From Klebsiella phage vB_KpnM_Croc_ER14, in the sequence record PP738763.1: a stretch of 64,000 nt of DNA; one strand, 5' to 3'. A program made the translations under genes and the position numbers. Positions 21,997 to 24,601 of this stretch are shown here, piece by piece; position 1 is the first letter of the stretch; each line of letters opens with the position of its first letter. The notes beneath the pieces are model-generated. The model worked only from the letters and a program-made list of their open reading frames with translations. It ran no database searches and was not told the origin of the DNA.

Positions 21997-23177
21997 AAAA
22001 TCTTTTAATTCATATTGTCGTGGACAATACCAAGACAGAGGGTTGGAATCTCTTGTCCTATAGCGACCCATAAACCGTTTGATCAGTCCGGCCTAAAGGA
22101 TTACCCACGACAATATGAACTGTTTACTCTTTGGTCTGGGGGAGGATTTACCTCCCCCATTCCTCCCGGTTTGGGCAGCGATCTCTCACTCAACCAGGGC
22201 GCCGGCAAATTTTAGATCAATTCTACAGGTTTGTAACCGCGCTGTCGCCAAGTCATGTTGCTTCTCCTATCATTATTTGACCGCACTTATGGCGGGCCGG
22301 GTTGTAATAGTTGAGTTGTGATCAACCAAGGGCTGCTAGACCTTTTATCCCGTTTGCGCATGATCAGTTCATGCGAGTCTTATCAAGCACCTTACGGCAA
22401 CTCTTCTGGATGTCATCGCCCTGCTGCCAGGCTCATCCCAGGAGTTTATTTTTCCAGGGCTTTCCACTTACAAGTCTTAACCAGACCGGGATACGGGCTT
22501 GTAAGATCGGGTTGGACACAACTTTGAGGACACTGACGACGTCTACTAGTCACCCATAACTGATATTCGGATGCCAGTATCCTCAAAGTTGCAACCAATG
22601 TCGCAACTCGCACCTGAGTGAAAGTCAGGCACTTGTCTATTCGCTAGACCAAGCTGTTTGGTGTCGGGTGCCTCCCGATGACCTTAACACGGAAAATAAG
22701 GCCGGGTGTGATGAAACCATCAGACTCAAGGAGATGAGACTATTCCGTTCCCTCTTGCGCTTAGCAGAATTCACCAAACATAGCAGCATCTATACAGAAG
22801 CAACTTGTCCTCTAACGCTCGGACCAAACGAGGCTGGCTGGTTGATTCAGAGCCGCTGGTTGCTCCAGCAAGCATGGGTTGATAGCCCGGCAACATAGAA
22901 TCACCCAAAGATGAAGAACACTCAGTGGTACAAGCCAGGGATACCAATTTTCAGGTCCTTTGCGAGTTCTTTAATGCTCTTCATTTTGTGAACTTGAGAA
23001 TACTACGCCTGTCTCGGGTTTCCCCTTAGTTCGGCCTCCCAGTCATCGCCGCGCCGGGTAGCTAACCCTGATGGCTCGTCTGCTACTGAGTTCTTCTTGG
23101 TGCCCACCAGTGTCCGGAATGTGTAGGCATCGCAATCTGCAAGGCGTGGTCTTTTTCACCCAACGCTCTCTCAAGTT

Positions 23178-23304
23178 CACAAATCGAAGTGCCCTGACTC
23201 AACAGTTGTGGCCCAACATATTGTTATCATCTACCGGGCTGGCCGTCCACTTTGTAGATCAACCTTTGGGTTTAAGATAAATTGTCAAGGCACTTCGATT
23301 TGTG
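23178..23304. repeat. 16-bp perfect inverted repeat (cacaaatcgaagtgcc / ggcacttcgatttgtg) enclosing a 95-nt loop
   Basis: Exact reverse complements at 23178-23193 and 23289-23304. Confidence 0.8.
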
Positions 23305-23493
23305 TGGATGTCATGCAAGACCGGGTGTCTGCCAGATCACCAGACATTGTGTTCAGTTTTGAACAGAGGCTGTAGGGTTATGAACCGCAACATGTCTTCA
23401 AACCTTGCACAATGAAATGTCATCTCAGTCCTGAATCACGTTCACGGTGGTGAGCCACTACAAGTGAGAACCGATTTGCATTTACCTTGCATT

Positions 23494-23625
23494 CCATCTT
23501 TGAGGGCATTCAGTATACAACAGGCTCCGATATTGACTAGCGCTATTCCGGCGTCGGATTTAAGTTGCCTTTCCCCTGAAGTTCCATGCAGTTTCGCGTC
23601 TGACGCGGAATGCCCTCAAAGATGG
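23494..23625. repeat. 18-bp perfect inverted repeat (ccatctttgagggcattc / gaatgccctcaaagatgg) enclosing a 96-nt loop
   Basis: Exact reverse complements at 23494-23511 and 23608-23625, extendable by A-U and G-U pairs. Same architecture as the 23178 element, 316 nt away. Confidence 0.8.
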
Positions 23626-24601
23626 AGCCGTTTTAGTCGGCGGGAGCTTATTAATCACACCCTCCCGCCTATTGTTAGTGCGCCGAATTCATTGACAAGG
23701 AGTCGGAAGACCTTGCTGGTGTATGGCTGTTAAGCTACTGCCAGGAACGTATTATCGTTTGCATTTATCTTTGTGGTCAGTTTCTAAAAACCCGCAAAGC
23801 CGCACACAACGAGAACGAAAACCTGTTTGAGCACAAGACACCATGTCCTGGGTTCACATCGAAGTGTTTGTCTAATGCCCAAACAGCTTTTCTCTCAGTG
23901 GGTTAACTATACTTTGTTAACCCTTATTGACAAAACTTTTTATTTGCCGGAACTTACGCATCCGGCCTCGTCCTGTTGGCGCTCCTAGAATCCGGGAAGA
24001 CAGTAGGAACAATTATGTTACCAACAGGAAACCTTTGTGTTGCCCTTTGACGCAACATTATGAACCCTCTTTAGAAGACTCATAATGTTGTCGGTGTGAT
24101 GAGGATTACCAGCCCTCGACCTTCCCATCGTGCGGTGTCGACTCGCCGCCGGGATGCTCTCGTCTCCGCTTTGCGGGTACTTTTCTGAGCTAATCACACT
24201 TTCAACAGGGAGTTTCGTTCTCCGACGGTCAGTGCGTCCACTAACACCAGCAGGGTTACTGCGCTGCCTCTATTCACACAAGCCCCTGAGACTAGGGGTT
24301 AACTGGTTTCGGGTTCAAGCCTACTCCCACTGTGCTGTTTCCCTTGAAATTTTATGATACTGCAACACGGCTAATTTGAAAAGTCCTCTCCTCTTGAGCA
24401 ACAGGACCTGAAATCCTGCGGCGAACCTCTGCTCAAAACCCGGTGCGCTATCGAAGGCGCTTTACCAGAGTAAACATCGGGTGTTCCTAGGAGAGTGAAG
24501 GCCATCCCGATGATGAGGATAAGGAGTAACGCTATGATTGTCATACTGTTCCCTCCCTTCCATGCAACTTACTTTACTGTAATTCTGTATTGAATAAAGC
24601 G

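Follow-up and report, generated by a model that had tools for sequence, protein, structure and literature searches.

Phage T4 carries, within its tRNA cluster, the stable RNAs C and D, small molecules that are not transfer RNAs (tRNAs) and that are co-located and co-oriented with the tRNA genes. The RNAs GOLLD and ROOL are likewise associated with phage tRNA arrays. RNase III cuts helices that bracket RNA segments, as in the intervening sequences of enterobacterial 23S rRNA, the processing stalks of rRNA and the early-RNA sites of phage T7. The transfer-messenger RNA (tmRNA) of Escherichia coli, SsrA, specifies the tag ANDENYALAA. Phage ssrA genes are on record, together with a version in mycobacteriophage DS6A that consists of the tRNA-like domain only and for which SmpB titration was proposed (PMC4131195); in a 2014 tmRNA census, mycobacteriophages and Bacillus phage G were the only phages with listed tmRNA genes. 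STnc100, a PasD-related small RNA of lambdoid and Stx prophages, is known from one copy located 75 nucleotides (nt) downstream of stx2, among others (bioRxiv 10.64898/2026.05.13.724894, PMC12370729), and the PR' "moron" site of lambdoid prophages is a known collector of related but non-identical small-RNA genes (PMC4104026). Here we analyzed a 64,000-nt stretch (the window) of Klebsiella phage vB_KpnM_Croc_ER14 (PP738763.1, family Ackermannviridae), in which a non-coding block at 21997–24370 adjoins a tRNA cluster. We propose that this block is probably a leftward-read chain of independently folding, exchangeable small RNAs that continues into the tRNAs, and not one RNA. Its most informative part, a tmRNA-like RNA at 23626–23825, was missed by the original prediction, which had been made from the letters of the window and had suggested a large structured RNA locus.

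The tRNA genes for Gln, Tyr, Asn, Ser and Met (20469–21996) all lie on the minus strand (5/5), matching the leftward orientation noted originally. Co-location and orientation with phage tRNA genes are as for T4 RNAs C and D, although the T4 cluster is far smaller. The region is 98–99% identical to phages vB_KpnM-20, K751 and Menlow. Within the block we again found eight plus-strand open reading frames (ORFs; 66–89 amino acids) and no minus-strand ORF of at least 60 codons. None of the eight matched any family in PHROG or Pfam, which bears out the claim that the block is non-coding. Its proposed limits (22000–24560) stood up to 24370; because 24371–24544 is a real gene, the right edge lies at 24370 and not at 24560. 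Most of the GenBank relatives listed have tRNA-Met alone, or little more, annotated here, and the others carry strings of short hypothetical proteins. The two genes that flank the block are:

21921–21996, minus strand: tRNA-Met (ARAGORN and Rfam), the first tRNA downstream of the RNA array and on the same strand
24371–24544, minus strand: gene for a small hydrophobic protein of 57 amino acids (phrog_8415, E 3.4e-29); phage PhaxI has an annotated gene at the same place

The block is exceptionally rich in long stems. A repeat scan allowing up to 400 nt between arms recovered all of the inverted repeats named originally, at or within a few bases of the coordinates given: 23178–23198/23284–23304 (21-nt arms, 95% complementary, the sole non-Watson-Crick position being U·G on the minus strand), 23493–23511/23608–23626 (perfect 19-nt arms), 22009–22028/22100–22119, 22512–22535/22575–22598 and 24053–24070/24073–24090. 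It added one more, 22976–22999/23169–23192. Counting stems of at least 12 base pairs (bp) that span up to 170 nt and contain no more than one isolated mismatch, we found five in 21997–24370; 200 dinucleotide-preserving shuffles averaged 0.09 and never exceeded 2. Same-sized segments elsewhere in the 64 kb averaged 0.33 such stems, and those not overlapping the locus had at most one. The stem-closed units folded with z-scores of −5 to −7.6 relative to shuffled controls.

Strand asymmetries point to RNA read in the tRNA sense. The minus-strand fold was the more stable in 9 of 11 segments tested, including the two ends of the block (21997–22320, z = −4.7 minus vs −2.9 plus; 23945–24370, z = −2.8 minus vs −1.9 plus). 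Internal mismatches in 88 distinct long stems from all loci were of G·U type in 22 cases and of A·C type in 8 when read in the tRNA sense (binomial p = 0.016, with the stems non-independent). The leader segment at the right-hand end contains one such hairpin:

24053–24090, minus strand: hairpin in the 23945–24370 leader, 15 bp including three G·U pairs that exist on the minus strand only

Together with the compensatory changes described below, these results support the proposed RNA-level constraint on the minus strand and the membership of the block with the tRNA cluster.

Comparison of 16 Ackermannviridae loci revealed a mosaic of blocks, bounded by breakpoints that recur in different relatives, in which whole modules are present or absent:

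22317–22615: found in nearly all relatives, Limestonevirus included
22616–22802 (STnc100 homologue): absent as a clean block from Kuttervirus and Limestonevirus
22984–23305: common to relatives
23306–23494: other sequence in its place in relatives
23495–23636: present in some relatives only
23636–23945: common to relatives, with 23942–23945 a breakpoint in three lineages

Identity to Kuttervirus was 83–88% over 22783–23305 and 23495–23636, against 71–73% over the adjacent, mostly coding 23942–25296. Compensatory changes occur in the tmRNA-like RNA (hereafter module X), in cassettes c2, c3 and c6 and in the conserved RNA here called block B. Seven cassettes (c1–c7), all on the minus strand, consist of a helix of 12–26 bp closing an insert of 39–169 nt, and they alternate with other structured or variable parts:

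23817–23892, minus strand: c1, 18-bp stem and 40-nt insert; the 3' strand runs into the 5' end of the tmRNA-like RNA
23493–23626, minus strand: c2, perfect 19-bp stem and 96-nt insert, folding z = −5.2
23305–23492, minus strand: variable spacer RNA, replaced in Kuttervirus and unalignable to PhaxI and other relatives, folding z = −0.6
23178–23304, minus strand: c3, 21-bp stem around a conserved 85-nt small RNA, folding z = −7.6
22985–23183, minus strand: c4, 15-bp stem and 169-nt insert
22911–22984, minus strand: c5, 12-bp stem AUGAAGAGCAUU / AGUGUUCUUCAU and 50-nt insert
22512–22598, minus strand: c6, 24–26-bp stem and 35–42-nt insert, with four stem columns changing on both sides (10 relatives)
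22317–22511, minus strand: block B, a conserved structured RNA of ~195 nt found in each of the three Ackermannviridae lineages compared (close relatives, Kuttervirus and Limestonevirus)
22009–22119, minus strand: c7, 20-bp stem and 71-nt insert, immediately 5' of tRNA-Met

The cassette stems are conserved through compensatory changes, and their inserts are swapped between relatives. This is clearest in the slot of c2, just 3' of module X, where different Ackermannviridae hold five unrelated inserts of 48–96 nt in one stem frame, two of the insert types bearing a canonical T-arm. Both strands of the c2 stem change together (UUUGAGG/CCUCAAA, UUAGAGG/CCUCUAA, UGGGAGG/CCUCCCA). The c3 stem keeps six pairs through changes on both sides, and one of its columns, U·G or C-G, pairs only on the minus strand. 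Kuttervirus has the 85-nt insert in conserved form, and a shorter relative occurs in a 68-kb phage contig. The two domains of shared architecture in the original prediction are c3 and c2. Both are indeed stem-closed; they turned out to be two of seven cassettes, with mutually unrelated inserts. Cassette c1 (folding z = −5.5 minus vs −3.4 plus) has a stem that also occurs in Ackermannviridae relatives, the c4 stem closes a 28-nt insert instead in one relative (L105), and the c5 stem holds a different insert in another (L067). A short ORF, MKSIKELAKDLKIGIPGLYH, was considered as a decayed DNA-binding gene and rejected: it is the 5' strand of c5 plus the insert, and the same stem has other inserts in relatives. 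Block B has a near-invariant core and covarying helices, and together with c6 it folds into 75 pairs, 11 of them compensatory; an unrelated Klebsiella phage of 144 kb has the block B hairpin at 22461–22509 with 96% identity. The spacer between c5 and the STnc100 homologue (22828–22908) is 84% identical to the 76-kb Klebsiella phage vB_KpP_FBKp27, and this module, too, is shared with an unrelated phage.

The stem sequences of the cassettes form a family related to the pair CACAACAGGUAAGAGCAUU / AGUGCUCUUUCCGUUGUG found on either side of module X in prophages and siphoviruses; the c5 stem belongs to the GGUAAGAGCAUU / AGUGCUCUUUCC family that flanks it in prophages. In lambdoid prophages (E. coli 55989, locus positions 2420–2740, and locus L051, 5820–6170), cassettes whose stem reads CACAACAGGUAAGAGCAUU / AGUGCUCUU(A/U)(U/C)CGUUGUG lie on both sides of module X. 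The GUUGUG of that stem could pair with CACAAC upstream or with the closing CCACAAC of the downstream domain, giving possible alternative folds. Like helices cut by RNase III, the stems are near-perfect, span about two turns and bracket an RNA segment inside what would be a longer non-coding or polycistronic transcript. They differ in that their sequence is conserved, which suggests a role in recombination or protein recognition as well. The long stems were also considered as a general tRNA processing stalk, an idea we dropped because, of the 359 distinct tRNAs in the phage loci retrieved, only one type proved to be enclosed. That type is tRNA-Ser(UGA) of FelixO1-like phages, a genuine tRNA in a cassette with a flanking stem of 10–12 bp.

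The tmRNA-like RNA lies between c1 and c2, in one copy in the window:

23626–23825 (read 23825→23626), minus strand: tmRNA-like RNA (module X), 171.9 bits with covariance model R1
23730–23762, minus strand: tag-like frame GCA AAC GAU AAU ACG UUC CUG GCA GUA GCU UAA, encoding ANDNTFLAVA followed by the stop

Model R1 was built from a 25-sequence alignment that includes the window sequence, so its 171.9 bits are no independent test. Module X comprises an upstream hairpin, the tag frame, a helix containing the stop codon, a pseudoknot hairpin and a terminal hairpin with the loop GUGUGAUUAAUAA. In the 25-sequence alignment, 89% of cells were paired, compared with 32–46% in slid controls, and 12 pairs changed on both sides, compared with 3–5. 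The downstream pseudoknot helix (helix 5) was 100% paired there, and the upstream helix 89% paired, with little covariation. Among 96 unique module X sequences, the stem of one hairpin occurs in five versions, each of them fully complementary (UGAGG/CCUCA, CAAGG/CCUUG, CGGGG/CCCCG, CAGGG/CCCUG and CUGGG/CCCAG), and the terminal hairpin has at least eight stem variants around the invariant loop. The loop of the first hairpin pairs with a downstream stretch as UCCGA/UCGG in 79 sequences and UCCAA/UUGG in 17, with zero exceptions, across at least three lineages. This strongly supported pairing is a pseudoknot, and its covariation is inexplicable at the DNA level.

The frame that precedes this pseudoknot resembles a tmRNA tag. 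Its stop falls at codon 11 in all of the 32 distinct tag-region variants, which also include ANDDVVLMAA, ANEEMYLAVA, ANDEQFLAVA and ANDSEVLMAA. Codons 1, 2, 3, 7 and 10 vary almost only synonymously (GCA/GCU, AAC/AAU, GAU/GAC, CUG/UUG, GCG/GCC/GCU), and the ratio of nonsynonymous to synonymous change (pN/pS) across the 32 regions was 0.49 for the tag frame and 2.27 and 0.91 for the two remaining frames. In the window sequence, no in-frame AUG, GUG or UUG and no Shine-Dalgarno sequence lies between the in-frame UAG eight codons upstream and the GCA, and ordinary initiation is thus unlikely. A conserved AAAU-GCAAACGAU aligns to the resume-codon region of the Rfam permuted-tmRNA model, and the E. 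coli ssrA that we fetched contains GCAAACGACGAAAACTACGCTTTAGCAGCTTAATAA. Weak tmRNA-family matches in Rfam recur on this resume-codon region in several loci; in the window (23682–23880) they reach 22.1 bits for tmRNA_permuted and 14.8 for beta_tmRNA, and in homologues 26.3, 23.5 and 20.2, with thresholds of 47–84. In Citrobacter phage Moogle, this is also the frame from which ARAGORN takes its tmRNA tag. Like SsrA, module X has a resume-type GCA after an A/U-rich stretch, a tag of 10 codons beginning AN(D/E) and ending in small or hydrophobic residues and then Ala, a stop codon in a helix and a pseudoknot after the tag. Like the tmRNAs of mycobacteriophages and Bacillus phage G, it is carried by a phage and adjoins tRNA genes. 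At 23825→23626 the aligned sequences show a tmRNA-like RNA: its three hairpins covary, a pseudoknot follows the tag, and the 10-codon frame is conserved.

In SsrA the tag is joined to an acceptor stem, T-arm and CCA; the tag module in the window is not, and it is interrupted or flanked by stem-closed cassettes. A T-arm scan of both strands of 21997–24370 found none apart from that of tRNA-Met. Candidate acceptor helices are GUUGUGG/CCACAAC, GUUUGGUG/CACCAAAC and GGGUGCG/CGCACUC, with a G·U only at 2:71 of the last, where Kuttervirus has A-U. The window offers only a degenerate equivalent of the tRNA-like domain, the STnc100 homologue, and, outside the block, a separate tRNA-like RNA:

22594–22808 (read 22808→22594), minus strand: STnc100 homologue (RF02076), 53.2 bits against a gathering score of 47, covering model positions 1–206 of 206
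20312–20467 (read 20467→20312), minus strand: tRNA-like RNA after tRNA-Gln and before the terminator, found by T-arm scan, unannotated and 3.3 kb downstream of module X

The STnc100 homologue (E 1e-8 to 1e-10; 1.2e-10 in a local search) has an 8-bp closing helix, GUUUGGUG / CACCAAAC, and a last hairpin, UCGGG-AGGCA-CCCGA, that abuts the 3' strand. It passes the gathering score over the full model and, like its family, is phage-borne; STnc100/PasD RNAs belong to the late-gene "moron" region of lambdoid and Stx prophages (PMC4104026 for the site). The window copy differs in belonging to a virulent Ackermannviridae phage, in lying in a non-coding array and in having no U-tract after its 3' hairpin that would form a terminator. 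Its layout recurs elsewhere. By motif counts, 23 of 113 loci with enough downstream sequence have, within 170–510 nt after module X, a domain with the closing helix GUUGUGGUG...C(A/G)(C/U)CACAAC; its last hairpin abuts the 3' strand and has a canonical T-loop in 5 of the 23. T-stems of this closing domain vary by compensation (GCCGG/CCGGC, AUAGG/CCUAU, GUUGG/CCAAC, GCAGG/CCUGU). The window homologue shares the arrangement (GUUUGGUGAA ... UCGGG-AGGCA-CCCGA CACCAAAC) ~830 nt downstream of module X, and one prophage has a sub-threshold STnc100 match just downstream of module X. In E. coli 55989, the prophage region aligns colinearly with E. coli ssrA 67–362, at a marginal z = 3.8, and ends in the T-arm GCCGG-UUCGAUU-CCGGC followed by CGCCACAACCCA. 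As a lead, we infer that in some phages STnc100 may correspond to the domain that closes a larger, tmRNA-like element; we found no report of this in the literature searched.

The RNA at 20312–20467 has a 7-bp acceptor-type helix, a T-arm (CUGGG UUCGAUU CCCGG), a UCCCA tail and one internal pseudoknot candidate, and it contains no tag frame. In six Ackermannviridae, Kuttervirus included, the acceptor helix, a second helix and the T-arm were 100% paired, with one compensatory T-stem pair. It shares the 9-mer GUGCAUGCC with the pseudoknot-1 region of E. coli ssrA. Neither an ARAGORN call nor a significant Rfam match covers it. Complementarity between module X and this tRNA-like RNA was dismissed, as the 7-bp match in the window is not conserved in Kuttervirus.

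Module X is widespread. By BLAST, 717 of 50,697 GenBank phage records match it, none of the matches listed being labelled as RNA there; it is present in 139 of 5426 complete E. coli genomes, and a pattern scan of IMG/VR found it in at least 120 contigs. FelixO1-like phages of ~88 kb, Erwinia phages and a phage of 72 kb carry the segment 23677–23805 at 78–91% identity, as do Klebsiella, Shigella and Salmonella phages of ~46–49 kb. Carriers of the module span unrelated groups: Ackermannviridae, FelixO1-like phages, the phages of ~46–49 kb, phages of ~70 kb, and lambdoid prophages. The locus of the Dickeya phage LIMEstone1 matched neither module X nor the tRNA-like RNA at 20312–20467. In the E. 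coli 55989 prophage, module X sits between the antiterminator gene Q and the holin gene. There and in L051, module X and its flanking cassettes occupy the PR' "moron" site between Q and the lysis genes. They share that site with the "moron" small RNAs, which differ in being Hfq-bound anti-sRNAs (directed at small RNAs) of 51–60 nt (PMC4104026); the present modules are 75–215 nt long, highly structured and without terminator-type 3' ends. We found nothing in the literature on tmRNA-like RNAs in these phage groups or on this non-coding region, and a 2024 review of Ackermannviridae mentions no tRNA, non-coding, intergenic, small-RNA or homing-endonuclease features. A widespread tmRNA-like RNA is absent from the record in the databases and literature searched. 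Several undescribed small structured RNAs and this RNA are new here; the STnc100 family was already known. Recognition of the RNA island corrects the annotation of Ackermannviridae, FelixO1-like phages, siphoviruses and E. coli prophages, in which the region appears "empty" or filled with invented hypothetical proteins, and many of the matching phages are therapy candidates.

Three further records touch on this distribution. Two records assigned to phages that infect Gram-positive bacteria, OR844942.1 (Enterococcus phage Efm 3-10) and GU169904.1 (Staphylococcus phage SA1), also contain module X, at 78–90% identity; these are probably mislabelled or mixed records. Phage P1 (NC_005856.1) has, at 68886–68955 in its "dicF-like region", a segment 78% identical to the 5' part of module X (query 8–80).

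Signals for transcription agree in orientation with the tRNAs:

23906–23933 (read 23933→23906), minus strand: sigma-70-like predicted promoter TTGTCA-16-TATAGT, the best in the region (10/12 match)

This promoter lies just inside the 23942–23945 breakpoint, and its transcript would start near 23899. Other phages have strong promoters at the equivalent place. In FelixO1-like phages this is TTGACA-17-TATAGT, inside a tRNA array whose tRNAs are co-oriented with module X (ARAGORN). Siphovirus VLCpiS13d has TTGACA-17-TAGATT directly upstream of module X, on the strand equivalent to the window minus strand, from which a transcript would continue into a tRNA-Met gene. Only one strong minus-strand terminator was found, at 20258→20235. 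We propose that transcription starts at the promoter predicted at 23933, is joined by read-through from upstream and would continue into the tRNAs. RNase III would then cut the long primary transcript (or several) at the two-turn stems, and RNase P would cut it at the tRNAs. The stems would act as processing or insulating helices, their conserved sequence allowing cassettes to be swapped by recombination without disturbing neighbouring folds. Stem-closed cassettes suggest a simple natural route by which RNA genes may be added to an operon without misfolding, of interest for RNA evolution and engineering. During infection, the island may support or re-programme translation, with tRNAs that replace or supplement those of the host and a tmRNA-like RNA that takes part in, or competes with, the rescue and tagging of ribosomes that have stalled. 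In T4 and Kayvirus infection, the tmRNA of the host is reported to remain abundant (bioRxiv 10.64898/2026.03.30.715471); with the SmpB-titration proposal, this makes helper and decoy roles both plausible. One study argues that phage tRNAs are a counter-measure to translation-targeting defences (PMC10264068). In phage–host conflict, the island would fit both this counter-defence and the persistence of host tmRNA.

We tentatively extend this to a further suggestion, which we hold with low confidence: that enterobacterial phages carry an unrecognized tmRNA derivative whose tag-template and tRNA-like parts have come apart. The tRNA-like function might then come from the degenerate STnc100 domain, from a swappable T-arm cassette or from the RNA 20467→20312, and the long stems could hold the pieces together after processing. 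Such a split system would rescue ribosomes stalled by host mRNA decay or by a tRNA-cleaving defence, adding a phage-specified tag; alternatively, it would be a decoy that shuts down host trans-translation. As part of this suggestion, it is conceivable, if doubtful, that the tag module is kept under selection for the encoded peptide. If the two parts do come apart, the STnc100 of Salmonella and Stx prophages would be a fragment of a larger element. For tmRNA biology, a split RNA may drive or block trans-translation, or the tag template may have a second use.

Several observations weigh against the chain of small RNAs and its tmRNA component as set out here. With 22–26 bits on the Rfam tmRNA models against a gathering score of 47, module X reaches about half the threshold. 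ARAGORN, run in tmRNA mode on all 127 loci, calls a tmRNA in Moogle only, and so neither in the window nor in the 125 others; the permuted-tmRNA model in Moogle is itself unreliable because its 5' tRNA-like half appears to overlap a Lys tRNA gene. Pairwise alignment of the window module X with E. coli ssrA was not significant (z = 0.4). No acceptor stem, T-arm and CCA joined to module X were found in the window, where the separate tRNA-like RNA is 3.3 kb away in the downstream direction, and G3:U70, the pair that confers alanine identity, is absent from every candidate tRNA-like domain examined. Only 23 of the 113 loci have a closing domain of STnc100 type after module X. The pN/pS of 0.49 is only moderate, and RNA pairing constrains some of the tag region as well, so tag conservation might reflect ancestry or RNA-level constraint and not translation. 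A few c2 stems have an A·C mismatch in the proposed sense, the "processing stalk" is no general rule for tRNAs, and the promoter and the processing steps are predictions.

The Moogle locus itself shows, at ~3075–3160 on the minus strand, the permuted order T-arm GAAGG-UUCGAUU-CCUUC, ACCCUUC-G-CCA, AACA and complementary GAAGGGU, which is typical of the acceptor pieces of two-piece tmRNAs and was used by ARAGORN for its permuted-tmRNA call. The annotated tRNA strand in this locus is opposite to that of ARAGORN.

The strongest of the alternatives, though an improbable one, is that the block is a graveyard of decaying tRNA, tmRNA and small-RNA remnants gained by recombination and without present function. 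Inserts with a T-arm that are not recognizable as tRNAs, in the same slots of relatives, would be expected of such decay, as would a tmRNA-like copy without its tRNA-like domain in the window, CCA ends and an alanine identity pair that are not conserved, and content that varies between relatives. Decay is harder to reconcile with parts of the island being better conserved than neighbouring protein genes (in the Kuttervirus comparison above), with helices preserved by compensatory changes, or with a tag frame that keeps its exact length and changes mostly synonymously or conservatively over 32 distinct variants in unrelated phages. Retention of module X in 717 phage records also argues for present function.

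We consider it very unlikely that the stems belong to a DNA-level element, whether as the terminal repeats of a miniature mobile element or as sites of recombination or replication, with incidental RNA folds. Stems of conserved sequence do flank swappable inserts, the stem motif recurs in unrelated phages, homing-endonuclease genes are inserted in or adjoin the region in relatives, and a few stems pair better on the plus strand. Against this, the window sequence has no target-site duplications flanking c2 or c3, the repeat scan found no iterons or direct-repeat families, GC content is ordinary, and elsewhere in the 64-kb window the stem motif shows no enrichment (33 matches vs 29 expected). 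Compensatory stem changes and the 22:8 excess of G·U over A·C in the tRNA sense speak for RNA, and neither the pseudoknot covariation nor the tag frame of module X has a DNA-level rationale. STnc100 is a small-RNA gene in Rfam, with detection by reverse transcription PCR in one cited study. Mobile inverted-repeat elements were considered separately and rejected, since target-site duplications are missing and the motif is unenriched; a paper on viral ones names Ackermannviridae in its references only.

A single large ornate RNA of GOLLD or ROOL type, spanning the block and folding as a unit, was the leading suggestion of the original prediction and now seems highly unlikely. The block is contiguous, ORF-free, dense in structure and adjacent to tRNAs, as this reading would have it, and GOLLD and ROOL are known large structured RNAs (PMC12286853). 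Rfam returned no match to a large-RNA family at E ≤ 1 over 19000–26000 and none at the gathering threshold over the whole window; the permissive scan gave the tRNAs, STnc100 above its gathering score and the weak tmRNA matches, and no GOLLD, ROOL, ribozyme, HEARO, group I or II intron or RNase P. The long helices close local units of 75–200 nt, and no block-spanning helix appeared in the scan limited to 400 nt between arms. Relatives differ by whole modules, losing or replacing internal segments (22616–22802, 23306–23494, the c2 insert) while the neighbours are kept; a single tertiary fold is disfavoured because it would not tolerate such changes. Module X, moreover, stands alone with its own promoter-like sequence in other phages. 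The evidence instead fits the fallback offered originally, a set of RNAs. That the block encodes several very small proteins, as the 8–13 "hypothetical proteins" annotated in the HMGUkp5 and Menlow records would imply, seems least likely of all, given that no ORF of at least 60 amino acids matches a family, that the annotated small ORFs lie on both strands and differ between records, and that indels and module swaps among relatives ignore reading frames.

Conserved non-coding sequence also extends among the tRNA genes. Between tRNA-Tyr and tRNA-Asn, 585 non-coding nt (20749–21333) are 84–98% identical to Kuttervirus piecewise, in partly changed order, compared with about 72% for the nearby, mostly coding 23942–25296. 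Further conserved RNA genes probably lie in 20749–21333. A block of ~110 nt just downstream of tRNA-Met (21809–21919) is 90–95% conserved across genera; in PhaxI it has a different position relative to the tRNA and adjoins an inserted endonuclease gene. Genes for HNH or other endonucleases occur at differing points of the island in HMGUkp5, NC_022343 (0507-KN2-1) and PhaxI. The insertion in HMGUkp5 corresponds to ~23811–23823, the 5' edge of the tmRNA-like RNA, and that in PhaxI adjoins tRNA-Met, positions which suggest that homing endonucleases may target these conserved RNA genes.

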